Shown here: one piece after another, positions 4,491 to 18,666 of the stretch | Layout: each line of letters opens with the position of its first letter | How positions within the stretch are numbered: the stretch's first letter is position 1 | From: Saprospiraceae bacterium | Lineage (GTDB): Bacteria; Bacteroidota; Bacteroidia; Chitinophagales; Saprospiraceae | Direction of reading: 5' to 3' | Assembly (NCBI GenBank): GCA_965248155.1 | Contig: CBDFIO010000001.1 | Span: forward strand, 480,009-544,008 | Length of the DNA: 64,000 nucleotides | Translations under genes and position numbers: made by a program | The notes under the pieces: model-generated | What the model was told of the DNA's origin: nothing | What the model saw: only the letters and a program-made list of their open reading frames with translations | The model's database searches: none

Positions 4491-5482
4491 TTATTCTATT
4501 TCTTCCCATTCTTTTCCATCCCAGATCCACAGATCATCTAATGGTAATTGCTCGCCATCCTTGTTTTCTTTGCCACCGAAAAGATATCCTAATTGAGACC
4601 CTGGATCGTAGGCAAAACCAAAACTGTGACGCGCAGATGGACCTTTAATATCAAGAGGAATAATCTTGTTTTGGTCGATTCGAAATGTAGAGCTTTTAGC
4701 TTGATAACGATAGTCTTTGCCACCAAATCCAATTATGCTTTCCAAAGCTTCATCATAAATCATAGCATGATGATCCAGAGAAGAGTTGTCATATGGTCCA
4801 CATAAAGCCGACCATTCTCCATCTTCCCATTTCCATAGATCTGCATATTGTCCATTGATCCAAAGCCCTCCATAAATATTAATGCTTTGTGCGTTCTTAT
4901 TGAAGGCCATTCCAAACGCAGCTCTTTTTGGAGGAGAAATAATATCTAGTTTTTCCCATTGTTCAGACCATTTCCAGCTTTCACTTACAACTTCTTCTCC
5001 ATTCCAACCTCCGAATGCCATTAGTGCGTTCTCTTCTTCCAAATAAACCATTTGATGATGATCGACTTTGTAAGTGTTATTGGTTTCAATTTGTGTCCAT
5101 CTATGACCATCCCACTCCCAGAGGTCAGAGTAAGTTGTGCTATTGTTTCCTCGACCTCCGTGGATAACAATTGACTTTCTCGAATCATGATACGCAACAG
5201 CACAAAAGCCTCTGGGGCTTGGGCCGATTGAGTCTACTTTAGTCCATTTTTCATCTTCCAAAATCCATGTATCATTCAAATAGGGCCCGCCTCTTTTATT
5301 TGTTCCTCCAAACAGAAGCAGTTGATTAGTAGTTGGGTTAAACACTAGAACATGCCCCCATCTTGCTCCAGGAAAATGATTGTTATCATTAATCTTAAAA
5401 GGTAAATGTGAAGACGAAATAAATATAGTAGACAGTAAAATGAGTAGACTAAAAAAAATCTTGCTTTTATTCGTTTTAGCAT
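4491..5482 (-). pseudogene. Secreted Kelch-repeat (beta-propeller) protein, frameshifted in the signal-peptide region
   Basis: Repeated Kelch units (xFGG ... W...W). The Kelch frame is open upstream of 5345 and encodes a signal-peptide-like KSKIFFSLLILLSTIFISSS, but the only ATG (5482-5480) is in another frame. One extra A in the A8 run (5451-5458) joins them. Confidence 0.7.
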
Positions 5483-5630
5483 ATACGCACCAGATTTAAG
5501 TGAATATTTGTAGTTCGCAATTTGTACGATCCAATTTTTATTCAAATTAACAAAAATGATGACCATCTTTATTCAGATTAAATGGATTTCATCTTTTTAT
5601 GTCTTGCTTGAGATTCTTTGAGAATTTTTT

Positions 5631-6086
5631 TTAAATCATTTCTAGCTTTGGATTGATGAAGGTTTTACAGAAAGGTTTTGCGGGATCTTTTATGTAATAA
5701 TTTTGAAATTTGGAATCTGAATGTTTAAAAGCTTTAAAAGGATAAACTTCTGCAACTATCATTTCCTTGAAATCTTTTTGAAGGTGTTTGATGATAAGAT
5801 TTGACTGATGAGTTTGATCTTGATTAAATGTATATATCGCAGATCGATATTTTTCTCTCATCGAATGTTTAGAAGTGGCTGAGTGTGTATGCAGGTGAAC
5901 TTCTATAAGCGTTTGGAGGGAAATTTCATTTTCTTCAAAATGTACGAGCACAGCCTCAGAGAATGAATTTTGTTCATCTGAAGATGCGATATATCCTTGC
6001 TCTACTTTTATTACACCTTTTAGAAACTGGAATACGGCTTCTGTACACCAATGACATCCACCACCTAATCCAATCTTACTAATCAT
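5631..6086 (-). CDS. msrA: Peptide-methionine (S)-S-oxide reductase MsrA-like
   Basis: N-terminal GLGGGCHWCTEAVF (compare the MsrA GCFWG active site), followed by ...EAVLVHFEENEISLQTLIEVH...KYRSAIY. Confidence 0.7.
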   Translation of the reverse strand: MISKIGLGGGCHWCTEAVFQFLKGVIKVEQGYIASSDEQNSFSEAVLVHFEENEISLQTLIEVHLHTHSATSKHSMREKYRSAIYTFNQDQTHQSNLIIKHLQKDFKEMIVAEVYPFKAFKHSDSKFQNYYIKDPAKPFCKTFINPKLEMI

Positions 6087-6186
6087 CTAATAGCTGTTAG
6101 TTTACAAGTACATTTAATTCAGAGTTTGAGAAAATCAGATAATGGGTACCAAAAGGGGATACCCATCGTCTGTGAATATTTTTAAA

Positions 6187-6543
6187 TTAAGCGTGATAAT
6201 ATCTCTCTTTAAGGATTTTACCATCTTTCCATTCGGATGCAACAATTTGTTCCGAGACCATTGTTGTTCCGTTTTTTAATTTCAAAGTCATTACGGCATC
6301 GTAAAAACTATGATTTCCATGAACTGCATAATTGCCTACATTATACCCAATGAATTCTTCCAATTCGTTGTTAATAAAATCTGCTTCAAACTTCACACAA
6401 AAATCTTTTCCTTTTTTAGGATCTCCATTCGCTTCTCTTAATTCTACATCATCATGCAAATATGTTTCCATCGCTTGAATAAATTGGCCTTCAGCCAGCA
6501 GGTCGTGAATATGTAATAAATTCTTTTCTATTTGATTTTGCAT
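6187..6543 (-). CDS. SnoaL/NTF2-like small protein
   Basis: 118 aa. Size and alpha+beta pattern are consistent with the NTF2-like fold. No catalytic motif recognised. Confidence 0.4.
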   Translation of the reverse strand: MQNQIEKNLLHIHDLLAEGQFIQAMETYLHDDVELREANGDPKKGKDFCVKFEADFINNELEEFIGYNVGNYAVHGNHSFYDAVMTLKLKNGTTMVSEQIVASEWKDGKILKERYYHA

Positions 6544-6563
6544 CTTAACTTGTTTTTAAATTA

Positions 6564-6893
6564 TTAATGAGTAGTTTGACTTGAATACTGATGAATTTTG
6601 TCGTGCAATGCAGACTCGGTTTGAAGACCAACTAATGATTCCACAACTTCGCCATCTTGGATAAAGAATAGTGCAGGAATACTTCTCACTCCAAATGATT
6701 CAGCCAACTCTTTATTTGTTTCCACGTTTACTTTTGCTATTGCAAAATCTGATTTGTGGAGTTCCGCAAGTTTTTCAACTGTAGGAAGTAATGTTCGGCA
6801 TGGACCACATCAATCAGCATAGAAGTCTAATAGTACAGGTTTGCCTTCACTAATAATTTCTTGAAAGTCTTTGTTATTTTTTATTTCTCTCAT
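6564..6893 (-). pseudogene. trxA: Thioredoxin with in-frame TGA at the Trp codon of the WCGPC active site
   Basis: Not in the ORF track. The minus-strand translation is MREIKNNKDFQEIISEGKPVLLDFYAD*CGPCRTLLPTVEKLAELHKSDFAIAKVNVETNKELAESFGVRSIPALFFIQDGEVV... The TGA is at 6812-6810, and the frame is otherwise intact for 109 codons. Confidence 0.8.
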
Positions 6894-6991
6894 GTTATAT
6901 ATTTTATGGTAATTAAAAATTATAACACAAATATGAATCCTATTTCAAGCTGAAGAATAGGCTGTTATTCCTTAACTGTTGGCATATTTAC

Positions 6992-7819
6992 CTATTGACC
7001 GGATTCTCTGAAATCAAGCGGAGAAATTCCCATTTGTTTCTTGAAAAAACGGCTAAATGACTGGATGTCTAAGAATCCAAGATCGTAACCGATTTCGGAT
7101 ATAGATTTGTCAGAATACTTCAAAAGTCGCTTCGCTTCGAGTATTAATCGATCCTTTATGAATTGTAAAGGAGATTTGATGCCTAATTTGTTAAAAAGAT
7201 TAGAAAGGGTTTTGGGTGCTTTATTTAATAACTGAGCATAATCTGCAACACTATGCTTCTCTCTGAAATATTTTTCAACAAAATAATTGAACTCTCTGAC
7301 AGTATCTGTATGTATTAAATCGGAGGAGGTAAAACTGCTTTGAGCTTTATAGATTCTAGTGCAAAGTATAAGTATTCTTTTTAACATCATTTGCAGCATT
7401 TCTAATTGTAAACTATCATTTGACTTCATTTCCATATCAAGTACCTTCCAGACGGATTCTAAAATTTCATTATCACTATCCGGAATATCAATGATTGGTA
7501 AAGCGGGTGAGCCATAATATAAAATACCTTTGCAACCAACTTCACTATCATGATCGAGAATGCAATAAAATGGTTTATTGAACCTTAAAAGTTTTAATTC
7601 ACTAATCTTTTCAATTTCTATTTTATGAAATTCAGTATAACAGATGATTTGATTCGTGTTAAAAACATAGGGGGCAGAATCAATAGTAAGTCGATTAGAA
7701 TCAGATGTGAACCAAAGAAGTGACAGTTCATTGCTATCTGAAGATTTCAGAATATCACAATTTTCTTGAGTAATAAGCTCCACTTCAAATGATTCCCCAT
7801 TTCTTCCTCTGTATTTCAT
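6992..7819 (-). CDS. AraC-family transcriptional regulator
   Basis: The C-terminal double HTH (ADYAQLLNKAPKTLSNLFNK...ISEIGYDLGFLDIQSFSRFFKKQMGISPLDFR) is typical of AraC/XylS. Confidence 0.85.
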   Translation of the reverse strand: MKYRGRNGESFEVELITQENCDILKSSDSNELSLLWFTSDSNRLTIDSAPYVFNTNQIICYTEFHKIEIEKISELKLLRFNKPFYCILDHDSEVGCKGILYYGSPALPIIDIPDSDNEILESVWKVLDMEMKSNDSLQLEMLQMMLKRILILCTRIYKAQSSFTSSDLIHTDTVREFNYFVEKYFREKHSVADYAQLLNKAPKTLSNLFNKLGIKSPLQFIKDRLILEAKRLLKYSDKSISEIGYDLGFLDIQSFSRFFKKQMGISPLDFRESGQ

Positions 7820-7848
7820 TATGAAATTTCAAGTATTTAAAATTGTCC

Positions 7849-8265
7849 TTAATTAAAGGGTAATAAATCGGGTTCCAAATAATTTAACCTTGCTTGCTTT
7901 GATATAAAAATATCTGAACTATAATGACTTTGGATCAGCTCTTTAAAGTTTGATTTTAACCTTGGGAATTCTGATATAAAATCCTTGAAACTGCCTGATT
8001 CAGATTTTTGTATAAATTGGTTTACAATTTTAATGGCAGCTAAGGTTAGGGTAGTGTGGTACTTGTCTTCGGCGCCTACATGTTTCACAAAAGACTTAAT
8101 TTGAGATTGGATATCTTCTTCAGCTTTCTGAACACCATTTTTCGTGATTTTAATCCAGGCAAGACGTAAGTGTGCTTCGTGGCTAAATAGCTCAGGCTTG
8201 AGTTGGCATGAAAAGAATTGCGCTTCAAATTCGTTGTCAGACAGATCCCAATGAGAGTTGCTCAT
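7849..8265 (-). CDS. Hypothetical protein (138 aa)
   Basis: Long ORF, co-directional with and 39 bp downstream of the Rieske-ThDP gene. No motif recognised. Confidence 0.5.
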   Translation of the reverse strand: MSNSHWDLSDNEFEAQFFSCQLKPELFSHEAHLRLAWIKITKNGVQKAEEDIQSQIKSFVKHVGAEDKYHTTLTLAAIKIVNQFIQKSESGSFKDFISEFPRLKSNFKELIQSHYSSDIFISKQARLNYLEPDLLPFN

Positions 8266-8303
8266 ACTTGATTTTTAAAAATTGAAATACAAATATAAGC
8301 GCA

Positions 8304-10253
8304 TCAAATCAATTTAACATCCGCCTTAACTTCGAGAAGTCCAGGACCATCATGGTCGAATAGTTTGTTCATTGCATCTTCTAAGTCTTCTGTTTTTTGA
8401 ACTAAGATTCCTAATGCACCGCAGCTCTCAGCATAGGATGCAAAATTCGGATTGACAAGACTTGTAGCCCACACATCAAATTCTCCAGCTCTTTGTTCCT
8501 TGGATATTTTGCCCAGTTCATTATTGTTAAGCAAAATAATCTTAATTGGCATTTTGTATTTCACGGCAGTAGTCAATTCTGCGAGGTATTGACAAAATCC
8601 ACCATCACCTGCAACTGCAATTACAGGTTGATCACTTCCAACTGCAGCCCAGGCTCCAAGTGCTGCTGGAAGGGCAAACCCTATCGAGCCTAGATATCCG
8701 GACATCAGAAACCGATGATTATCACTTTCAAAATATCTACCAAAAGAATAAGCATTGTTTCCTACATCTACACACATGACTGCATTCTTTGGTGCTAATC
8801 GAGTCAATGTATCAAAAACAGCAATTGAGCTGATACCTTCACCTCTGTCCTCTAATAAGCGTTTTTGTTTTTCTGCACGCCAAATAGACCAGCGCTTTTC
8901 AATTTCCTCTCTTTGATTTACTTTATTGTCAGAGTTGGATAATTGCTGATTGAGCATTTCCACGGTAACAGAAATTTCTCCCCAAACGGGAATTTGTACT
9001 TTATGGAATTTACTCAAAGCCATTGGGTCAAAATCGATTTGTATTGTAGGAATTTTAGGTGTGATTCCCGTATGTTTTGAAAAAGAAGCTCCAATTACTA
9101 AGAGTAGATCAGCCTCATTCATAAACCAGGATGCAATCGGTGTTCCGCTCCTTCCTAAAACACCACAACCTAATGGATGACTATCTGAGATTTGTCCTTT
9201 TGCTTTAAAAGTAGTCATGACAGGACAATTCATTTTTTCTGCGAGGGCAATGACATTTTCCATGTGGAATCGAGCACCATGACCTACTATAATTGCCGGT
9301 CTTTGTGCTTTGTTTAACTGTTCTAAAGCTTCATTAAATGTTTCCTGAGGTGGTGCAATCGTCATCGGTGTTATCCTTCCTTTAGGAGTCTTTGATTTTG
9401 CTTTTGTAGATGCGGGAAGGGTTTGGATTTCATCCGGAAAAGTAAGATGAGAAACATCTCTTTTTATAATGGTATGCTTAATCGCTAGAAGCATAAGCTC
9501 TGCATGTCGACTGTTTTGCTGAACTCTATGATTGAATTCAGCAACAGTATCAAATGCTCTCACCAGATCTAATTCCTGAAAATTACCTGTACCTACGACC
9601 TGTGTTGCAACTTGTCCTGTCAATGCCAGGATTGGTGCACGGTCTACTTTTGCATCCCACAAGCCAGTATACATGTTGGTAGCTCCTGGTCCGGCAATTG
9701 CAAAACATGCAGCAGGTCTGCCCGTTAATTTACCATAGGCAGAAGCTGCGAAAGATGCTGCACCTTCATGTCTTATACCAATAAACTTGAGATTTCCTTT
9801 TTCTTCTTGTCGCTTTAAAGCATCAGCTAATCCCAAATTAGAATGACCCACCATGCCAAAAACTGTATCTATGCCCCAGTTGACCATGGTTTCTGCCATG
9901 ATATCTGTTATCGTAAATTCAGGATCTGCTTCTTTTTCTAATCCTACATAGATTCCATCCGCTTCAATCTTAATCGGAAAAGTATCTACACCATCATCAT
10001 ATCCAGGAATTTTCCCAGTACAAGGATTAAAATCCCAACCATGCCAGGGACACCTTAACATTCCATTTTCAATAGATCCTTCTCCAAGTGGACCACCCTG
10101 ATGTGGACATTTGTTATCCAAAGCACTAATCGTTCCCTCATATTTTGTCAGGCAAATCCCTTTATGACCAGCTGTTACAGTCATTACCCGCCCTTCCAAT
10201 AATTCATTTTCTTTATCTAGTACTTTATGCCAAACGATTTGATTTTCGTCCAT
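8304..10253 (-). CDS. Rieske [2Fe-2S] domain fused to a PoxB/acetolactate-synthase-type thiamine-diphosphate enzyme
   Basis: N-terminal CPHQGGPLGEGSIENGMLRCPWHGW (CxH..CxxH). Then the ThDP-enzyme N-domain (IRHEGAASFAASAYGKLTGRPAACFAIAGPGATNMYTGLWDAKVDRAPILALTGQV) and the C-terminal ThDP motif GDGGF...LNNNELG. Confidence 0.8.
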   Translation of the reverse strand: MDENQIVWHKVLDKENELLEGRVMTVTAGHKGICLTKYEGTISALDNKCPHQGGPLGEGSIENGMLRCPWHGWDFNPCTGKIPGYDDGVDTFPIKIEADGIYVGLEKEADPEFTITDIMAETMVNWGIDTVFGMVGHSNLGLADALKRQEEKGNLKFIGIRHEGAASFAASAYGKLTGRPAACFAIAGPGATNMYTGLWDAKVDRAPILALTGQVATQVVGTGNFQELDLVRAFDTVAEFNHRVQQNSRHAELMLLAIKHTIIKRDVSHLTFPDEIQTLPASTKAKSKTPKGRITPMTIAPPQETFNEALEQLNKAQRPAIIVGHGARFHMENVIALAEKMNCPVMTTFKAKGQISDSHPLGCGVLGRSGTPIASWFMNEADLLLVIGASFSKHTGITPKIPTIQIDFDPMALSKFHKVQIPVWGEISVTVEMLNQQLSNSDNKVNQREEIEKRWSIWRAEKQKRLLEDRGEGISSIAVFDTLTRLAPKNAVMCVDVGNNAYSFGRYFESDNHRFLMSGYLGSIGFALPAALGAWAAVGSDQPVIAVAGDGGFCQYLAELTTAVKYKMPIKIILLNNNELGKISKEQRAGEFDVWATSLVNPNFASYAESCGALGILVQKTEDLEDAMNKLFDHDGPGLLEVKADVKLI

Positions 10254-10254
10254 T

Positions 10255-11499
10255 TTAATAGATTTTTTTCACCAATTTAGAAATCGTTAGTCCTTGAATC
10301 AGTATGGAAAAAATAACCGTTCCATAGGTTAATAAGAGAATCGTGTTTTTTGAAAACTCCGGGGCCAATGAAAATGCCAAAGCCAGTGAGATACCGCCTT
10401 TTAATCCTCCCCATGTAAGAACATAGGTGGTTTTTAACCAGGAACTTTCTTCGTGTTTTAATAGGGAGCACGGAAGCCATACTGAAATAAACCTTGCAAT
10501 TAAAACCAAAATAATGGATAGCACCGCAAGTATTAAATAACTGCTATTTTCAATGACTATGAGATGAAATGCCAGACCTAAAAACACAAAGAGCACTCCA
10601 TTCAAACTATCATCAAGAATATGCCAAAAGCCAACAAGATTTTTTCTGGTTTCAGGGTTGAAATCAGGCGCTTTAATTTTACTACCAATATATAAACCGG
10701 CTACAACCATCGCTAATGGACCGGAAGTAAGTAATAACATAGCAATACTATAACCTCCAAAAACAACAGCAAGACTTAGTACAGTAGGTAAATAGATTTG
10801 ATCTTCAGATGACTTCATGAGTCTATAACCTCCAATACCCAATACGAGGCCTAATAGGAGACCCAGGAAAACTTCTTCGGCAAAAAGAAGCACGATTTCC
10901 AGGTATATATTGCTGCTTTGTTCCATCATTTCTCCCACACCACTAACAAGAAGAATAGCTGTAAAAACAATTACTCCAATTCCGTCATTAAATAAGGATT
11001 CACCTTCAATTTTCAACTTCAATGATTCACTGATATTCGTGTTTTTTAGTATTCCCAGTACGGCTATTGGATCAGTGGGTGAAATTAGAGCACCAAATAA
11101 CAGACAGTGCAGATATGGAATAGAACAGTTGATCATTTTTGCCAAATAAAAGAGTCCAGTTCCTACGAGGAACGTTGATATTAATACACCTACTGTTGCG
11201 AATAGAAGCACAGTTACTTTTTCCTTTTTCAATTTATTAATGTCAACATGTAATGCTCCGGCAAATAATAGGAAACCAAGCAATACATCCAGCATGATAT
11301 GTGTGAAGTCAGTATTCAGGATGAGATCACAAAAGAAACTATAAACTGGTGGAACCACCGGTCTTAAAGCGAGCACTATAATAGCCAAAATCAATGCCAT
11401 GATCATCTGTCCTATGGTCATTGGTAGTTTGAGCCATTTATAATTAATGAAGCTTAACAGCGCCGCGAGCGCAAACATTATGCTAAAGGATTCATACAT
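10255..11499 (-). CDS. CPA1-family Na+/H+ (cation:proton) antiporter
   Basis: About 12 TM segments with the family blocks LFGALISPTDPIAV and ESLFNDGIGVIVF. Confidence 0.8.
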   Translation of the reverse strand: MYESFSIMFALAALLSFINYKWLKLPMTIGQMIMALILAIIVLALRPVVPPVYSFFCDLILNTDFTHIMLDVLLGFLLFAGALHVDINKLKKEKVTVLLFATVGVLISTFLVGTGLFYLAKMINCSIPYLHCLLFGALISPTDPIAVLGILKNTNISESLKLKIEGESLFNDGIGVIVFTAILLVSGVGEMMEQSSNIYLEIVLLFAEEVFLGLLLGLVLGIGGYRLMKSSEDQIYLPTVLSLAVVFGGYSIAMLLLTSGPLAMVVAGLYIGSKIKAPDFNPETRKNLVGFWHILDDSLNGVLFVFLGLAFHLIVIENSSYLILAVLSIILVLIARFISVWLPCSLLKHEESSWLKTTYVLTWGGLKGGISLALAFSLAPEFSKNTILLLTYGTVIFSILIQGLTISKLVKKIY

Positions 11500-11500
11500 G

Positions 11501-12295
11501 TTATTCGTATTTCATTTTAATGTCATTAATATCTAAGTACAAAATATCCCAACTAGAAAACTTATTAGTGGTTCCAGTTACAGAAACTTTTTCAGCAACA
11601 TATTTTAATGTCTCTTTGTTTAATGGACTACCTTGCTTATCCAGCATAAGATAATATTTATAATCTTGATTATTGTCTTCAGGTTCATATCTAAAAACTG
11701 GAGGGATGCCACCACTTATGCATCTAATTGCACAGCTTTTATGAATCTTACCTTCTCCGGGTTTCATTACGCCGAAATAACATTTTGGATCCAAAATCTC
11801 GCCCTTGACAGAAATAAATTCTTTCGGAGTTAAATTGATTTCTTTTTTGGATGTTGCCTCAAGTTGTTGAATAAGAGAATCGTCTTTTTGAGTTAACTCC
11901 ATTAATGTCTTACCATCTCCTTTGATTAATGTTCCCGCCAATACAATTTTTTTTCTATGAAGAGATCCGGTTCTTTCCTGAATTTTATTCATTGTTGCAT
12001 TAGCACCAACTTTGCCAAATCCAACCAATAAAATCTCATTCGAAATGCCTTCAGGTAGTTGCCCCTCATCAGCTATTAACATGGGATAAGGTATATTATA
12101 ATAGAGTCCTGAAATCTGACTTGTTTTTCCTAATTGAAATGAATGAGTGTTAAAACCCTTTTGAAAAAAAACCAGTAAAAAAACAAAAACTGGAATCAAA
12201 GCAAAAAATAAAATTATTCGCTTTCTTAAAAAACGTCGATGCTCATCTCCCATTTTTTCCTGCCAACCAATATAAAATCTATCATCCTTATTCAT
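11501..12295 (-). CDS. Membrane-anchored hypothetical protein with a Cys-rich C-terminal motif
   Basis: One N-terminal TM helix. Motif DPKCYFGVMKPGEGKIHKSCAIRCISGGIPP. Overlaps the upstream gene by 8 bp and abuts the antiporter gene. Confidence 0.5.
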   Translation of the reverse strand: MNKDDRFYIGWQEKMGDEHRRFLRKRIILFFALIPVFVFLLVFFQKGFNTHSFQLGKTSQISGLYYNIPYPMLIADEGQLPEGISNEILLVGFGKVGANATMNKIQERTGSLHRKKIVLAGTLIKGDGKTLMELTQKDDSLIQQLEATSKKEINLTPKEFISVKGEILDPKCYFGVMKPGEGKIHKSCAIRCISGGIPPVFRYEPEDNNQDYKYYLMLDKQGSPLNKETLKYVAEKVSVTGTTNKFSSWDILYLDINDIKMKYE

Positions 12296-13334
12296 GAGAC
12301 TCTATTTTGGCAGGATCAACAAAGGTTCCTTCAAATTTGGGAGTAGGGTTTAACCAGACAGTATTCTCCCAAATACGTGTTTCATATGTTTTTACTTTTT
12401 CGGTAAAAGGCGGTGGAGATTGACCATTATGAGGCAGATATTGGTAGCCATGCCATGGACAGGTAATGCATCCATCTATAATTTTTCCTTCTCCTAAAGG
12501 TCCCATTTGATGTTTACAAACATTGTGCACTGCAGATACTTTATTGTTATACTTGAAAATGGCAATATTTTCACCTTTAATAAAAACTGTTTTAGCGCAA
12601 GATTCTGGAATTTCATGAATGGAAGCTATTTCATAGAATCCTTCTTTTTCCAATTTTGTTTTATTCGATTTTAAATTTTTTCTTTCATTCCATCCACTGT
12701 AGAAATGTAAAGTAGATACAACTAAAAAACCTGTAATCAACAGCGTCCAGTAAACAGGATGACTTTCATATTGCAATGCTCCTGTTGCGACATGAATGAT
12801 GATCAGGCCATAAGCAAAATAGACCATCATATGTAAAGCTTTCCAGATTTCAGGCGACAGGTTTTTAAGCCAAAAATCATGGCTCGTAACTGCCATTAAG
12901 TATAATATTATCAATGCAAAAAATCCTAATATTTGGAATGGAAATTCACTGATTGAAGTATAATTTAAATTAGAAGTAAATATACTTACAACAGGATTTG
13001 TATCGCCGAGGGTATGGAACTCAATCATACAGAATAGTCCATGAGTCAAAGCGAGTAAAAACATAGAGACGCCCATATGGCGCCTATTATAAAGTAAGGG
13101 TAAAAAAAGCTTATTTAGCCTGGAAACTGGTCCGATTATTAAAATCAAATGAAGTAATAAGAATGAGCAAAGACCTGTAGCTCTGATAATTAATGTTTCA
13201 ATTGTAATTTCAGGATGAAAAATGAATTGAAAAGCGATATAAGAAACGAAAAACAATAATATTCCTAACCATAGAATTTTGTCATATTCCTTCTTTTGCT
13301 TGTTCCATAGAACCGGGACATAATTATTGCTCAT
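12288..13334 (-). CDS. Ferric-reductase/MsrQ-like six-TM (di-haem b type) domain fused to a C-terminal Rieske [2Fe-2S] domain
   Basis: TM helices with spaced His residues (LLLHLIL, RRHMGV, LALTHG, ALHMMVYFAYGLIIIHV), then CKHQMGPLGEGKIIDGCITCPWHGY. Confidence 0.7.
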   Translation of the reverse strand: MSNNYVPVLWNKQKKEYDKILWLGILLFFVSYIAFQFIFHPEITIETLIIRATGLCSFLLLHLILIIGPVSRLNKLFLPLLYNRRHMGVSMFLLALTHGLFCMIEFHTLGDTNPVVSIFTSNLNYTSISEFPFQILGFFALIILYLMAVTSHDFWLKNLSPEIWKALHMMVYFAYGLIIIHVATGALQYESHPVYWTLLITGFLVVSTLHFYSGWNERKNLKSNKTKLEKEGFYEIASIHEIPESCAKTVFIKGENIAIFKYNNKVSAVHNVCKHQMGPLGEGKIIDGCITCPWHGYQYLPHNGQSPPPFTEKVKTYETRIWENTVWLNPTPKFEGTFVDPAKIESHE

Positions 13335-13416
13335 TGTATGGCAAGTATTATAATTAGAGAAACAAGCAGACTAATTACTACCCAACTATAAAAATGTCTG
13401 TGTCGTAATGAAGGCT

Positions 13417-13629
13417 TCATGATTTCGATACTCTAATCCATTTAATTAAAAAAAGAAGCCACAACAAGCTTAATCCCGGAAATATTAAGACCCTGAAAAG
13501 GAAGCTTGCATTTTTAGTGTTTGGATCTACTTGATGAATCCCTTTCCATAAAAATATTATTGAAAACAAAACTCCAAGCGCTAAGTAAAATCCAATACAG
13601 TTGATTAAAATGTTTATAATATTTTCCAT
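13417..13629 (-). CDS. Small two-TM membrane protein (70 aa)
   Basis: Two hydrophobic helices. It starts 8 bp downstream of the glutamate-synthase-like gene. Confidence 0.5.
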   Translation of the reverse strand: MENIINILINCIGFYLALGVLFSIIFLWKGIHQVDPNTKNASFLFRVLIFPGLSLLWLLFLIKWIRVSKS

Positions 13630-13637
13630 GATTTGAA

Positions 13638-14612
13638 TTATGATGAACTTACACCGGCAAATGGAATTCCGGTGAGTTTATGGATATCATAATGAAATGT
13701 ACTTAAATCATTAAAGTTAAACTTAGCTATATCATCATGACCACAAGACCTTGCAATCACTTTGATCAGATCATTCGATGCTCTAAAAAAGTTGTTAAGT
13801 TGATTCGCAGATGACTCGATAATCAATCGTTTTCTCAATCCTTCTTTCTGTGTAGCTATACCCACGGGACAATTATTAGAACCACAGGCACGCATTCCTA
13901 AACATCCAATAGCTTGCAGTGCAGAATTAGAGACGGCAATTGCATCTGCACCCAACATCATGGCTTTTGCAAAATCTTCGGGTACACGTAATCCTCCTGT
14001 GATAATGAGTGTGACATCATCTGCTTGTATACTATCAAGATGTTTTCTTGCTCTTGCTAGAGCAGGTATAGTTGGAACATTAATATTGTCTCTAAGAATC
14101 GTGGGTGCGGAACCTGTTCCACCACCTCGACCATCAAGAATGATATAATCTACACCAACTTCAAGTGCAAAATCAATATCTGCTTCAATATGACTAGCAG
14201 CAATTTTATAACCCACGGGAATGCCTCCTGTTCGTTCTCTCACTTCTTGGGCTACTTCCTTGAAATCTTTTGCGGTGAATAAATCTGGAAACGCGGCCGG
14301 AGATATGGCAGCACGACCTTCTTCCAATCCACGCACTCCTGCAATCTCCTTGGATACTTTATGAGCAGGAAGGTGACCTCCAGTACCTGTTTTTGCACCT
14401 TGACCTCCCTTAAAATGGAAAGCCTGTGATTTTGCTACTTTGTCGAGTGTATAGCCAAATTTACCTGAGGCTAATTCATAAAAGTATCTTGAATTATTTG
14501 CTTGTTCCTCTGGAAGCATTCCTCCTTCTCCACTACAAATTCCAGTTCCTGCCATTTCAACACCCATGGCCAAAGCAATTTTAGCTTCCCGGGATAAAGC
14601 GCCAAAACTCAT
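13638..14612 (-). CDS. FMN-dependent glutamate-synthase-domain-2-like oxidoreductase, C-terminal (TIM-barrel) part
   Basis: Begins exactly at the family motif MSFGALS. Also contains GEGG, FHFKGGQGAKTGTGGHLP, and DGRGGGTGSAP. Confidence 0.8.
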   Translation of the reverse strand: MSFGALSREAKIALAMGVEMAGTGICSGEGGMLPEEQANNSRYFYELASGKFGYTLDKVAKSQAFHFKGGQGAKTGTGGHLPAHKVSKEIAGVRGLEEGRAAISPAAFPDLFTAKDFKEVAQEVRERTGGIPVGYKIAASHIEADIDFALEVGVDYIILDGRGGGTGSAPTILRDNINVPTIPALARARKHLDSIQADDVTLIITGGLRVPEDFAKAMMLGADAIAVSNSALQAIGCLGMRACGSNNCPVGIATQKEGLRKRLIIESSANQLNNFFRASNDLIKVIARSCGHDDIAKFNFNDLSTFHYDIHKLTGIPFAGVSSS

Positions 14613-15250
14613 ATGGAAACAAAGATGGGCATATCAAGTAAAAGTGGTTTTTTGGCTTTTGGCCCTATGGTAACTTTAGTTTTAACCTCCTCATGATCTA
14701 ACAAGGGACGTGATGCCAGTTGTGCTGGAAGAAATTGAATGTTTTCCCATTTAGGAAGTGTATTCCGATCAACACCCATTGATGCTGATGGCCCATGATG
14801 TCCATATTTTTTTAATCCATTTTGAGTCAGTTCTTTGATGTATCGAGTATAAGGTTCAGTACTTTCTGGATGGGTGTCTGAATATTGTCCCAGGTACTGC
14901 TCCCGATCGAACGGTTGTGGATAATCAAGTAAATATTGATTTATTTCATTTTCATCTACCAATACAAAATCCTCGTGAATCTCCGAGTAGAATTTATGCA
15001 GGACTTCTTTATTATTGTATTCGCTTACTCCAGAGTCGATACGATAGTCCCATCCATGAAGTCCACATATTATATTATTACCATCAACATATCCATCCGC
15101 CATTAAAGCACCACGATGCAGGCAGCGTCCATATAGAACAGATACTTTTTCGTCATAGCGGAGGACCACAAGATCTAGTCCGTTAAGTTGTGCAGCTTTT
15201 GGTTTTCTGTCTTCAAGTGAGGAAAAGGAAGTTAGTTTTATCTTATGCAT
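14609..15250 (-). CDS. Rieske [2Fe-2S] domain plus the N-terminal segment of the same glutamate-synthase-like fold
   Basis: CLHRGALMADGYVDGNNIICGLHGW. The C-terminal half (...LPKWENIQFLPAQLASRPLL...LLLDMPIFVS) is the segment that normally precedes MSFGALS in a single polypeptide. There is an ATGA overlap with the next ORF. Confidence 0.75.
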   Translation of the reverse strand: MHKIKLTSFSSLEDRKPKAAQLNGLDLVVLRYDEKVSVLYGRCLHRGALMADGYVDGNNIICGLHGWDYRIDSGVSEYNNKEVLHKFYSEIHEDFVLVDENEINQYLLDYPQPFDREQYLGQYSDTHPESTEPYTRYIKELTQNGLKKYGHHGPSASMGVDRNTLPKWENIQFLPAQLASRPLLDHEEVKTKVTIGPKAKKPLLLDMPIFVSI

Positions 15251-15446
15251 TTGAATTCAGTTGATTTCGTTTAAAATTTGAATATCAATGTTACTTTATA
15301 GAAGCTATTCAATTCTATCTTTGATATGAACCTGATAAAATTGCAAATTGTTCAAATCCGCATCATTTCTTTTTTTATTGTTTACTGATTCAATAAATTC
15401 ATTTACATCCTTATCGGTTTCCTCATTGACTAATTTCTTCATAATA

Positions 15447-17209
15447 TCAATTCTCAATAATGAACCCTAACTCTTGAGAAATTTTTATATCATCAAGTGC
15501 TTTCTTGTTTTCATTCAAGGCTTTATGAATGATAGATCGGAAATAATAAAAAGATCCTTCGTCATTACTTAGATCTATAGCCCGATTGATATATTGGAGA
15601 GCTTCAGTGAAGTTGCCTAATTTTTGAAGTAGAATTGACATATTGTAATAAGAAAGAACATCTTCTGAATTCAATTCAATGAGTTTTGAAAAATCTACCA
15701 TTGCCAAACTATCTTGATTCAACCGCATTAATAATACAGCACGATTTCCGATAGCACGTTGATAGTCTGGGTATATTTCGATAGCTCTACTAAAATCCTC
15801 TAGTGCAGTTTGGTTGTTAGAAGAAGCTAAATTTGCAAGTCCTCTGTTATTGTAAGATTCATGTAAATCAGGATTTATTCTTATGCATTGATTACAATCC
15901 AATAGAGCACTATCAAACTTGCCGCTTTCATAATAACTGGAAGCTCTATTGCAATACGCAAGACGATGATCAGGGTATTTTTTTATAACATCGCTCCAGA
16001 GCGTAATATTGTTTTTCCACACTTTTGTTCTTTGATGACTAATGAAAACGAGTGAAACGATATAGAGGATAGCAACTGTTTTTATTATTTGTCGAGTAAA
16101 ACCTGTCTTTGTTTGTTTAGCGAAATAATTGACCCAAATAAATGAAATGATATAAAAGATGCCGATGTATGACAAGTAAGTAAATCGATCAGAAATAATA
16201 GCCTTTCCTGCTGGGATTATTTGTAAGACTGGAGCTATGCTAATAAGGAAAAACAGAAATCCGAATGCATAGTCTCTGTTTCTTTTCATTGATTTTATTG
16301 TAAAAAAGAATAGTGCTATACCAGGTAATATTGCTGCATATATATACCAAGGCATATCTCCGCCTGAAGTATAAGGATAAGGATGAAAAGCACAAAGATT
16401 GTACGGGAGGATACATTTAATGAGGTATACCATCATACCGTAAGCTCCTACGAAAATGCTTTTGTACCATTGAAGCTCTGATAATTCAAACATGGCTTGT
16501 CCGGCTTGCTGAGTTTTGATCAGAATAATTCCAAATACTATACTTAAAAGAAAGAAAGGAATTTTTTCGAAAAGGTTTTGCCTCCAATTTTTGTGTCGTA
16601 ATAAGTAGTCTATTGCTATTAGAATTACGGGCAATGTGACGGCCATTCCTTTTGCGAATAAGCTCAAAATGAAACAGGTCAAAGTAGCCAAATAGTACCG
16701 TAGTTTGTTTGAAGGTGACTTAAGATAATTCATGTAAAATACGAGAGCAAGCAGGTAGTAAAAACTATATAGAACATCCTTCCTTTCAGAAATCCATGCC
16801 ACAGATTCAACATGCATTGGATGGATGCCGAACAATAGAGCCGTAATAAATGCGATTGTTATATTATCCGATATTTTCCTGATAAATACATATACGAGAA
16901 AGGCATTTAGTAAATGCAGTACCAGATTATGAATATGATATAATGCAGCATCAAATCCGCCAAGACTATAATCAATAGCAAGTGAGATGAGTGTCATAGG
17001 ATGATATAATCCCTGCACTTGAAAAGTACCAAAGATATTGCAGAGCCCTGCCATGACAGGTCTTGGATCAGGAGATTGTCAAGAACATAAGCTGGATCAT
17101 CCCAATTAACCCAACCGTTGGAAACGACAGGAAACATTGCAGCACATGATCCCAATAGAACAATTAGGATAGGATAAGAACTTTGTTTAGACCATTTGGA
17201 ATTTTTCAA
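15447..17209 (-). pseudogene. Multi-TM DUF1736/TMTC-like protein with C-terminal TPR repeats, frameshifted near the 5' end
   Basis: ORFs 16994-17209 and 15447-17054 overlap. N-terminal ...NGWVNWDDPAYVLDN... and then YHPMTLISLAIDY, HPMHVESVAWISERKD are consecutive blocks of one family. One extra G after TGG (CC at 17051-17052 on the plus strand) restores DLSWAGLCNIFGTF. Confidence 0.7.
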
Positions 17210-17232
17210 TGAATATTGTTTCCCAAAGTATA

Positions 17233-17673
17233 TTATTGAGGCTTTTCCATATAAGATTTAAGACTATCTCTGATGAAGTAATTCCATCCTGCAATTCCGC
17301 TCTCTCTTTTAAACTCTGGAATATCTTGAGGAAAATCTTCTGTTACAATAGAAGTGACTTGCAATAATGTCTGATCATTATTTTGTGATAATTCAAAACT
17401 TACGAGACCAATTCCTGGATATCCCTCATAACGCCAGTCATAAGTGATCTTTGAATTAGAAACTACTTCTACTATTGTCCACAAATGAGGAAAGACTCGA
17501 TCTTCAAGTTGAACAATAAATTGTGTTTTAAATCCAACTTCAGGTTTGAAATCAGGAATATTATTAAAGAACCATTGCCTCATTTTATCGACATTGGTGA
17601 TAGCATCCCATACATCTTCAATTGAATTGCTAAAAGATTGTTCTACGATGATAGGAGGATCAGACTTTTTCAT
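17233..17673 (-). CDS. SRPBCC/AHSA1-like small protein
   Basis: 146 aa. The pattern (VWDAITN..KMRQWF ... ITYDW) is typical of Aha1-domain SRPBCC proteins. Confidence 0.55.
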   Translation of the reverse strand: MKKSDPPIIVEQSFSNSIEDVWDAITNVDKMRQWFFNNIPDFKPEVGFKTQFIVQLEDRVFPHLWTIVEVVSNSKITYDWRYEGYPGIGLVSFELSQNNDQTLLQVTSIVTEDFPQDIPEFKRESGIAGWNYFIRDSLKSYMEKPQ

Positions 17674-17796
17674 TGCTCTCTTGTTTGAATAAATAGATGT
17701 AGAATTAAATTGAATTGATTTTTACAAAAAACTCAAGATTCTATAAAGTTATACAAAACAAAAGTACTTCATCGGCCATCTTAGCAAAAAGCGACA

Positions 17797-18666
17797 TTAG
17801 CCATAATCACTAATATAATTTGCGAGATATTCCGATGGTGTGCATGACATAAAGTTCTTGAATGCCCTATTAAATGTAGCCTTACTTGAAAATCCGGACT
17901 CATAAGCCAATTCTAGTAATTTAACATTGGTACTTCTTCTAGAATGGATAATCTTAATAAAATAATTGATTCGGGCCTCATTAATGATGGCGTTAAAATT
18001 AGTATTGGATTGGTTACCAATAATTCTGGAAAGGTATTTCGATGAAATTTCCAGTTGATTAGCCACACGAACTACTGAAATTCTATCATCAAGAAAAATT
18101 TTATCCTTGCGAATAAGTTTAAGGAATCTGTGCCAGTAAATATTGTTTTGTGGTGAGACTTGAATATCCTGAAGATATGGGGCGATTACTACAGCAAGCA
18201 AATTAATAGATCTTTTAATCTCAGTACTATTTGCATTGTTTTTTCGATATTTTGAATATATCATTCCTGTCAACTTGTTTTTAAATATGATGGACTTTGA
18301 CAATTCAAGATTTTGAGCATGACCAATATTAGTTGGAATGGCCCTGTCTTTAGAATCAGACTTGAGCCTTCGTCTCCAATCAGAAGTTCTAAGTGGAATA
18401 TGATTTTTCTCTGGTAATGATTCTTGTAAAGATGACAGGGATGCAATCCTATCCAAGGATTTCGGTAATTTTTTAAACGTATTAGTCGAAGGACATAATT
18501 TAAAAAGGCTTAATTCCTGAAGCTTTAACTTCGATTCAAATTCATTCAAAAGATATTGAATAATTTCTTTGGAAGATTGAATCGGATTTAGATTTGGTAT
18601 AATATCTAATACGATATCTATAATGGGATTATCCCCATGCTGAGTTTGGACTGTTCTATAATTCAC
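17797..18666 (-). CDS. AraC-type HTH domain regulator
   Basis: C-terminal VVRVANQLEISSKYLSRII...LLELAYESGFSSKATFNRAFKNFMSCTPSEY. Confidence 0.75.
   Translation of the reverse strand: MNYRTVQTQHGDNPIIDIVLDIIPNLNPIQSSKEIIQYLLNEFESKLKLQELSLFKLCPSTNTFKKLPKSLDRIASLSSLQESLPEKNHIPLRTSDWRRRLKSDSKDRAIPTNIGHAQNLELSKSIIFKNKLTGMIYSKYRKNNANSTEIKRSINLLAVVIAPYLQDIQVSPQNNIYWHRFLKLIRKDKIFLDDRISVVRVANQLEISSKYLSRIIGNQSNTNFNAIINEARINYFIKIIHSRRSTNVKLLELAYESGFSSKATFNRAFKNFMSCTPSEYLANYISDYG

Follow-up and report, generated by a model that had tools for sequence, protein, structure and literature searches.

Why would the same small electron carrier, a Rieske [2Fe-2S] domain, be attached to three different proteins encoded side by side? 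The question is raised by positions 8304–15250 of a 64,000-nucleotide stretch of DNA from a Saprospiraceae bacterium (contig CBDFIO010000001.1), the whole of which was analysed and is referred to here as the window. In this locus a Rieske domain is joined to a glutamate-synthase-like flavin mononucleotide enzyme (Rieske-FMN), to a membrane protein containing a ferric-reductase domain (FRD; FRD-Rieske) and to a PoxB-like thiamine diphosphate enzyme (Rieske-ThDP). The locus is a widely conserved gene cluster of marine Bacteroidota, real and unstudied, and it consists of two separable sub-modules, usually but not always adjacent and variable in their make-up. The membrane sub-module comprises a 70-residue peptide, FRD-Rieske and a 264-residue anchored protein, for which the working name DUF264 is used. 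The soluble sub-module comprises Rieske-FMN and Rieske-ThDP, often with a CPA1-type antiporter and elsewhere with an uncharacterized 263-residue protein. With rather more belief than doubt, we read the module as a relay of the NOX/MsrQ kind, in which electrons would pass from cytoplasmic dehydrogenases to Rieske domains, then to two haems and finally to a periplasmic Cys3His domain. A preliminary description of the window had proposed an electron-transfer chain between cytoplasmic substrate oxidation and the membrane, and had recognized no characterized pathway of this composition. The literature search agrees with the latter point: the cluster was found to be undescribed, and only the combination of FRD and Rieske is listed, in a 2013 survey that catalogues this architecture without giving it a function (PMC3591440).

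Gene content of the cluster

The sizeable open reading frames (ORFs) of 8304–15250 lie, without exception, on the minus strand of the window:

14609–15250, minus: 5′ fragment of the Rieske-FMN gene, 213 residues (Pfam Rieske, E 4e-13)
13638–14612, minus: 3′ fragment of the Rieske-FMN gene, 324 residues (Pfam Glu_synthase PF01645, E 1e-82)
13417–13629, minus: 70-residue peptide, two transmembrane helices from hydropathy
12288–13334, minus: FRD-Rieske, 348 residues (Pfam Ferric_reduct, E 1.6e-14; Rieske, E 1e-14)
11501–12295, minus: 264-residue anchored protein (DUF264), one N-terminal helix, Cys3His motif
10255–11499, minus: CPA1-type Na+/H+ (or K+/H+) antiporter, 414 residues (Pfam Na_H_Exchanger, E 1e-58)
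8304–10253, minus: Rieske-ThDP, PoxB-like, 649 residues (Pfam Rieske, E 4e-16; TPP_enzyme N/M/C, E 1e-32 to 1e-33)

The co-directional, tightly packed arrangement reported earlier is borne out at these coordinates. The FRD-Rieske and DUF264 genes overlap by 8 bp (12288–12295), one-base gaps separate the abutting genes at 11499/11501 and 10253/10255, and the other gaps, claimed not to exceed 90 bp, measure 8 bp (13629–13638) and 82 bp (13334–13417). The domain calls also stand, since Pfam assigns Rieske, TPP_enzyme, Glu_synthase and Ferric_reduct domains as had been proposed. The three quoted CxH...CxxH motifs are present, the Rieske model PF00355 scoring 49.5, 54.5 and 59.2 bits (cut-off 20.3), and all four Cys/His ligands are retained in 96–100% of the relatives of each family.

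The count of seven genes has to be revised. What had been described as an ATGA overlap between two genes (14609–14612) is a one-base deletion within a single gene. In 50 of 50 relatives both parts form one ORF of 535–541 residues, and the junction reads FVS-D-MSFG in a single frame, with the Asp invariant in all 50. At the corresponding site (14609–14615, minus strand) the window has GTTTCC-ATATGAG: the G that opens the Asp codon is gone, which creates the TGA and the apparent overlap. The 324-residue ORF, which scores 278 bits with PF01645, aligns only to positions 74–368 of this 369-position profile, and the first ~73 positions are found in the tail of the 213-residue ORF. The continuous ORF of the relatives and the missing Asp base therefore give six genes, one of them frameshifted.

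Linkage of the two sub-modules

A homologue search with DUF264 returned 2148 homologues, 2038 relatives (clusters at 50% identity) were recovered when a profile was run against 1.84 billion cluster representatives, and a scan with one genome per species found the protein in at least 316 genomes. These genomes span Saprospiraceae, Lewinellaceae, Balneolaceae, Chitinophagales and Flavobacteriaceae (Psychroserpens, Polaribacter, Spongiivirga), and the module genes are syntenic across all of these groups. In total, 160 related loci were compared, 80 from genomes and 80 from a metagenome scan with the Rieske-ThDP family. Linkage was counted in the 43 genome loci that are fully flanked (at least 9 kb on either side of the DUF264 relative) and in the 16 well-flanked metagenome loci (at least 5 kb on either side).

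FRD-Rieske is encoded directly upstream of DUF264 in 42 of the 43 genome loci and the 70-residue peptide lies nearby in 39. Around this nearly constant core, Rieske-FMN is found in 30/43 loci, the 263-residue family in 17/43, Rieske-ThDP in 16/43 and CPA1 in 10/43. In 38 of the 43 membrane loci the same strand encodes at least one Rieske-fused soluble enzyme no more than 10 kb away, a proportion that fits a shared electron relay, and both soluble enzymes are present, as in the window, in eight. The module-family genes obtained by ORF clustering are all on one strand in the 43 loci, whereas their order varies among lineages. Because gene order differs between lineages, the linkage argues for selection rather than for common ancestry of one arrangement.

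These data also bear on the simplest alternative, that unrelated genes are adjacent by chance. The composition does vary, CPA1, Rieske-ThDP and the 263-residue family each being present in part of the loci. However, the genes stay adjacent on one strand in five or more bacterial families although their order is rearranged, and the 4-bp gene overlaps and gene fusions described below point the same way; synteny and fusions contradict chance adjacency, which we consider exceedingly improbable.

Starting in reverse from Rieske-ThDP, at least one other module gene was found in 13 of the 16 well-flanked metagenome loci. The commonest neighbour is the 263-residue family (10/16), followed by Rieske-FMN (8/16), CPA1 (5/16) and FRD-Rieske (4/16). 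This family carries invariant DDSH and WPHHFDTG motifs (for example L016:10849–11640, L114:9181–9993 and L161:8980–9786) and is absent from the window; no relative of it was found in Pfam, NCBIfam or the PDB. A motif scan of the 160 loci for other Rieske-fused enzymes turned up nothing beyond one fusion and fragments of these three families of Rieske proteins.

The neighbourhood of Rieske-ThDP speaks for a self-contained soluble pathway, in which Rieske-ThDP would pass electrons directly to Rieske-FMN, together with the 263-residue protein and an optional antiporter, the membrane genes being only co-regulated neighbours with a task of their own. The closest partners of Rieske-ThDP are soluble, FRD-Rieske being the rarest of the four, and Fluviicola and marine bacterium AO1-C have the soluble set with no membrane genes in the surrounding ±10 kb. 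Such a pathway might be tied to ergothioneine/histidine-betaine metabolism, as EgtD is encoded alongside, with EanB or EgtB, in eight metagenome loci (see below). Nevertheless, we regard it as unlikely: that 38 of 43 membrane loci keep a soluble Rieske enzyme, in several gene orders and across families, is hard to explain if the two parts are uncoupled, and the same unusual Rieske add-on is common to all three proteins.

The membrane part: FRD-Rieske and the 70-residue peptide

FRD-Rieske matches Ferric_reduct (PF01794) with 54.5 bits (cut-off 28) and the Rieske model with 54.5 bits. Four histidines, H86 and H98 in helix 3 and H168 and H181 in helix 5, are invariant in 75 of 75 relatives, and the Rieske ligands C273, H275, C292 and H295 are 99% conserved in the same set. 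Four such histidines characterize FRD proteins with two haems, while the short forms of the YedZ/STEAP type keep two or three (PMC3591440). FRD-Rieske is therefore assigned to the four-His di-haem class, haem binding being predicted. The AlphaFold2 (AF2) model (predicted local distance difference test, pLDDT, 80.7) contains six long helices and a β-domain, and hydropathy agrees on six helices. By hydropathy and the positive-inside rule, both the N-terminus and the C-terminal Rieske domain are predicted to be cytoplasmic. The best PDB matches found by Foldseek are the Rieske ferredoxins of dioxygenases, CarAc, BphA3 and the NDO ferredoxin, with target TM values of 0.80–0.87; such ferredoxins shuttle electrons and dock on a second Rieske centre.

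The 70-residue peptide, encoded directly upstream of FRD-Rieske, matches no Pfam or NCBIfam model. In Flavobacteriaceae an extra 136-residue single-helix protein is encoded between the two (L069:8549–8968), and at L071:1552–2169 the peptide and the 136-residue family are fused in one ORF. In public databases the module proteins bear generic names only, “Rieske 2Fe-2S domain-containing protein”, “sulfoxide reductase heme-binding subunit YedZ”, “pyruvate oxidase” or “hypothetical protein”, and FRD-Rieske is often labelled YedZ by automated annotation.

DUF264 and its natural fusions with FRD-Rieske

DUF264 has no match in Pfam or NCBIfam. All 80 relatives compared keep C172, H185, C188 and C192, and the conserved stretch reads DPKCYFG.MKP..GK.H.SCA.RC.SGG.PP. 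The N-terminus is predicted to lie inside, with eight Lys/Arg preceding the single helix, which would place the ~220-residue domain in the periplasm. Although the AF2 model is confident (pLDDT 87.7), a Foldseek comparison of the fold with the PDB gave nothing significant, the best match (E 0.07) being a weak OB-fold resemblance. A relationship to flavodoxin was considered and dismissed, as the best sequence-profile match to the PDB (E 0.24) is spurious. A twin-arginine signal was likewise rejected: the window has RRFLRK, but at this place most relatives show one R/K or no such residue. Because the twin-arginine motif is not conserved, the Cys3His site is more likely to act through a metal ion (Zn, Cu or Fe) or as a thiol than through an Fe–S cluster.

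Natural fusions link FRD-Rieske and DUF264 physically. Four mutually diverged cluster representatives, 608–626 residues long, contain FRD, Rieske and DUF264 in one chain, and one further representative of 481 residues joins FRD to DUF264 without the Rieske domain. At locus L100 one fusion is a single ORF at the DNA level and lies beside a Rieske-ThDP gene. Where the two proteins are encoded separately, a 4-bp overlap is the commonest junction. The layout of the fusions fits the predicted topology: one side carries the Rieske domain together with FYIGW, a conserved N-terminal motif, the helix follows, and the Cys3His site lies on the other side. The four histidines of the di-haem FRD, the topology predictions and the fusions found in nature lead us to propose DUF264 as the probable extracytoplasmic redox end-point. 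The preliminary inference of an electron chain is supported in its first part, a shared relay, which the count of 38 of 43 loci fits; the chain does not appear to end at the membrane and probably continues to the periplasmic DUF264.

The soluble part: Rieske-FMN, Rieske-ThDP and the antiporter

Rieske-FMN contains an N-terminal Rieske [2Fe-2S] domain, a linker and the FMN barrel corresponding to domain 2 of glutamate synthase. Its Rieske ligands, C43, H45, C62 and H65, are retained in 96% of 50 relatives, and the three cysteines of a 3Fe-4S motif, C-x5-C-x4-C-P, are conserved in 100% of them. The nearest solved structures are large chains of GltS (122–124 bits), and the score with the GltB equivalog model PRK11750 (127.6) is below its cut-off (1047).

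In Rieske-ThDP, all four Rieske ligands are conserved in 28 relatives, and the activating Glu E163 as well as G549, D550, N576 and N577 are invariant; the ThDP-binding motif reads GDGGF...NNN. The best NCBIfam model is pyruvate oxidase PRK08611 (409.8, below the cut-off of 742), the score with ubiquinone-dependent pyruvate dehydrogenase PRK09124 is 304 (below the cut-off of 792), and the nearest solved structure is E. coli PoxB (3EYA, 228 bits). The protein ends where the alignment reaches residue 526 of the 572 of PoxB, without the C-terminal lipid-binding peptide (~532–572), and PoxB F465 is aligned with Lys582 (numbered by our own residue count), which is invariant in the family. The lost membrane peptide and the lysine at the F465 site are consistent with a different electron outlet, and on these two grounds the Rieske domain may replace the direct route of PoxB to quinone. 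Between Rieske-ThDP and FRD-Rieske the Rieske domains show 42% identity, and an extended motif is common to both.

The Rieske-ThDP family is 66–81% identical across distant bacterial families. In addition, the Rieske-ThDP gene has the highest G+C content of the window (0.397 against ~0.35, read at 8001–10000). The high G+C and the unusual conservation could reflect strong constraint or lateral spread.

The antiporter matches PF00999 with 199.5 bits (cut-off 26.2) and scores 125.7 with the TIGR00831 equivalog model, below its cut-off of 279.6. It is optional, as seen in the counts above for genome (10/43) and metagenome (5/16) loci, and is mostly found next to Rieske-ThDP. Beside the ThDP gene it occurs as two subtypes, with ~40–46% and 64–75% identity to the CPA1 protein of the window.

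Proposed path and direction of the electrons

Domain content, conserved ligands, gene linkage and natural fusions are directly shown. Taken together, these parts suggest a relay for which we infer how the cofactors are loaded, which way electrons flow, and what the substrates and the acceptor are. FRD-Rieske would form a NOX-like membrane core of six helices that hold a pair of b-type haems, each close to a different face of the membrane. In this protein a Rieske domain of the ferredoxin type takes the cytoplasmic place of the flavin/NADPH domain of NOX. On the periplasmic side, the Cys3His domain of DUF264 would adjoin the outer haem. Electrons would be supplied by the soluble dehydrogenases, the FMN/3Fe-4S enzyme oxidizing an amino acid or imine and the PoxB-like ThDP enzyme a 2-oxoacid, and would pass singly from Rieske to Rieske, as between Rieske ferredoxins and Rieske oxygenases. 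More speculatively, the two enzymes might act in sequence, the FMN enzyme converting an amino acid to a 2-oxoacid and the ThDP enzyme the 2-oxoacid to an acid and CO2. The two haems would next relay the electrons across the membrane to the Cys3His centre, from which DUF264 would reduce an extracytoplasmic acceptor that could be a metal ion, an oxidized protein or a thiol. The optional Na+/H+ antiporter might export the protons left in the cytoplasm by the export of electrons. Na+/H+ exchange plays this part for the phagocyte NADPH oxidase.

Several observations weigh against the proposed relay. The direction of electron flow is not readable from sequence. For a Sec-exported Cys3His site, structural Zn binding is as likely as a redox role, and the lack of a conserved twin-arginine signal argues against a periplasmic Fe–S cluster in DUF264. 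No membrane genes lie within 10 kb of the soluble genes in Fluviicola and marine bacterium AO1-C, and 5 of the 43 membrane loci have no soluble Rieske enzyme over the same distance; the sub-modules also occur alone or further apart than this, so that a direct passage of electrons from one to the other can be no more than proposed. Finally, the gene for the FMN enzyme is disrupted in this window.

Regarding direction, electrons could instead flow inwards, from a periplasmic donor or quinol through DUF264, the haems and the Rieske domains to a reduction at the FMN/3Fe-4S enzyme, such as the reductive amination of a 2-oxoacid. True glutamate synthases do run from Fe–S clusters through FMN to the substrate, the 3Fe-4S motif is fully conserved here, and no soluble enzyme accompanies the membrane genes as often as Rieske-FMN (30/43). 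However, FRD proteins of known function (NOX, FRE, STEAP and MsrQ) all export electrons (PMC3591440). Moreover, the PoxB-like partner is an oxidizing, electron-releasing type of enzyme, and low-potential Rieske domains of the ferredoxin type accept electrons poorly from b-type haems. Inward flow is thus quite improbable in our judgement, and the outward relay is retained.

A more specific version of the outward relay can be offered only tentatively, and we hold it to be doubtful as a whole. The module would be a hitherto unrecognized extracytoplasmic reductase system, in which the cytoplasmic oxidation of a 2-oxoacid and an amino acid is wired to a new periplasmic Cys3His redox protein by way of Rieske-to-Rieske transfer and an FRD with two haems. 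As a counterpart of MsrPQ and NOX based on thiols or metals, it would serve oxidative-stress defence or metal reduction, maybe tied to ergothioneine metabolism, in marine Bacteroidota and Balneolaceae.

FRD proteins such as NOX, FRE, STEAP and MsrQ are the main known route by which electrons cross membranes to targets outside. To our knowledge, all characterized members draw their electrons from NAD(P)H/flavin or quinol. If the proposal is true, an FRD fed by Rieske domains from dedicated ThDP and FMN dehydrogenases would represent a new input logic, and a periplasmic Cys3His protein a new output. The families of the module are large and without functional annotation, and the module is common among abundant marine heterotrophs. 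Direct testing is feasible, as some carriers can be grown in culture (Psychroserpens jangbogonensis, Spongiivirga citrea and Sediminitomix flava).

Disrupted genes in and near the cluster

The frameshift in the Rieske-FMN gene raises the possibility that the module is decaying in the present genome, in which case the cluster would be at least partly non-functional here. The deletion hits an invariant Asp codon and lies outside any homopolymer run, and the deposited record contains the same break on a 1.88-Mb contig, listing the fragments as two separate proteins. Two more disruptions are found nearby. In a thioredoxin gene (6564–6900, minus strand) a TGA at 6810–6812 replaces the invariant Trp codon of WCGPC (DFYAD-TGA-CGPC), leaving only a 53-residue C-terminal ORF. 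A gene for a membrane protein with TPR repeats seems to be split by a frameshift near 17040–17060 (minus strand) into ORFs 16994–17209 and 15447–17054; the 71-residue upstream ORF, with the N-terminal part WVNWDDPAYVLDN, presumably belongs, as in similar TPR membrane proteins, to the 535-residue ORF that runs on in another frame.

An alternative code in which TGA specifies Trp was considered and rejected, as TGA ends 13 of the 49 long ORFs, that of the full-length Rieske-ThDP included. Since TGA is otherwise a normal stop in the window, the change in the thioredoxin gene is either a nonsense change or a base error. Three disruptions in a span of 11 kb, in a window that is dense in genes and intact elsewhere, suggest an error-prone assembly or gene decay. 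The same density would also be expected of an error-prone long-read metagenome assembly, and the remaining five genes of the cluster are full length and highly conserved. For the frameshift we lean towards an error of assembly over a recent inactivation; true decay is a serious possibility, though one we are inclined to doubt.

Neighbouring genes

The preliminary description had noted that a 138-residue ORF and an AraC-family regulator (6992–7819, minus strand; Pfam HTH_18) follow the cluster on the same strand. The ORF is no part of the module, since none of the 160 related loci contains a relative of it. Relatives of the AraC protein (36–45% identity) are found near the module in ~7 of the 160 loci, often on the opposite strand; it is a loose neighbour at most, and a role as regulator of the module is possible but weakly supported. 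In loci of the Flavobacteriia type, a regulator of the Crp/FNR family (cNMP_binding and HTH_Crp_2) is often encoded directly upstream of Rieske-FMN (L162:5460–6122, L161:6383–6967 and 13 other loci); the regulator gene of the window is of the AraC family instead. In Fluviicola and marine bacterium AO1-C, too, a Crp-family regulator precedes the soluble genes.

Besides the six families of the module, the named recurrent families of the 160 loci are DUF2721, EgtD, Crp, YHS, YjeF_N, DUF427, PycTM and the 263- and 136-residue families. Secreted YHS-domain proteins are encoded near the module in 13 loci, an NAD(P)HX epimerase domain is found among the neighbours, and OsmC lies near the soluble genes in Fluviicola. 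A peroxiredoxin-like ORF with a putative thioredoxin fold, assigned from its own sequence, also occurs near the module. In the window, an MsrA-like gene (PMSR, E 2e-23; 5631–6086) and a gene for a SnoaL-like protein of 118 residues (6187–6543) lie on the minus strand downstream of AraC; L076 and L089 also encode the SnoaL-like protein next to the module. The recurrence of redox-stress genes around the module (OsmC and ergothioneine genes, with MsrA and thioredoxin in the window) speaks for the proposed relay.

The most conspicuous functional hint is that EgtD is encoded on the same strand beside the 263-residue gene and Rieske-ThDP in 8 of the 80 metagenome loci (L110, L114, L116, L118, L120, L122, L125 and L126), where a DUF427 protein is also present. 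It was identified with TIGR03438 (295 bits, cut-off 290.9), and its companions are EanB in four loci (668 bits to PDB 6KTV, a true orthologue) or EgtB in one (TIGR03440, 510 bits). The EgtD copies are 30–55% identical to the query copy, except for one pair at 87% (L122/L126), so that the link recurs in mostly diverged lineages. Neither the window nor any of the 80 genome loci contains ergothioneine genes, and the link is a lead rather than a finding on the window.

A scan of 5000–18000 against Rfam returned no RNA family. A promoter/terminator scan of 6800–15700, of a kind that is uninformative for Bacteroidota promoters, gave counts at the level of shuffled sequence (33 vs 35 and 9 vs 6).

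Comparison with known systems

The soluble enzymes are each recognizable variants of known ones. Rieske-FMN shares the PF01645 barrel and the C-x5-C-x4-C-P motif with the large subunit of glutamate synthase and with the stand-alone FMN-binding glutamate synthase family, but it does not contain the amidotransferase, central and C-terminal domains of GltS and has gained an N-terminal Rieske domain. Rieske-ThDP shares the N/M/C architecture of ThDP enzymes, the GDG...NN motif and the cofactor-activating Glu with E. coli PoxB and Lactobacillus pyruvate oxidase; it differs from PoxB in the added N-terminal Rieske domain, the missing C-terminal membrane peptide and Lys582 in place of F465.

Three-component Rieske dioxygenases (CarAc, BphA3/BphF) have the same ferredoxin-type Rieske domain, with CxH-x16-CxxH spacing, and provide a precedent for Rieske-to-Rieske transfer. 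In contrast to them, the module has neither an oxygenase catalytic domain nor a reductase, and its Rieske domains are fused to haem, FMN and ThDP proteins.

With NOX/FRE and the bacterial long-form FRD proteins, FRD-Rieske shares the six-helix FRD with four haem histidines on helices 3 and 5, a cytoplasmic input domain after helix 6 and, presumably, outward electron flow. The input domain here is a Rieske domain, however, and Pfam finds no FAD or NAD(P)H dehydrogenase domains in FRD-Rieske; the proposed acceptor is an anchored Cys3His protein instead of O2 or free Fe3+.

The likeness to MsrPQ (YedYZ) lies in a haem protein of the FRD family feeding an extracytoplasmic partner encoded next to it. 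FRD-Rieske nevertheless scores 43.9 bits with the MsrQ model NF003831, below the cut-off of 130, and has all four histidines, of which proteins of the MsrQ type keep two or three (PMC3591440). Its partner is DUF264, a new family without a Pfam match; no molybdoenzyme is among the named recurrent families of the 160 loci, in which no search aimed at MsrP was made. The module would work like NOX/FRE and MsrPQ, yet it is a member of neither.

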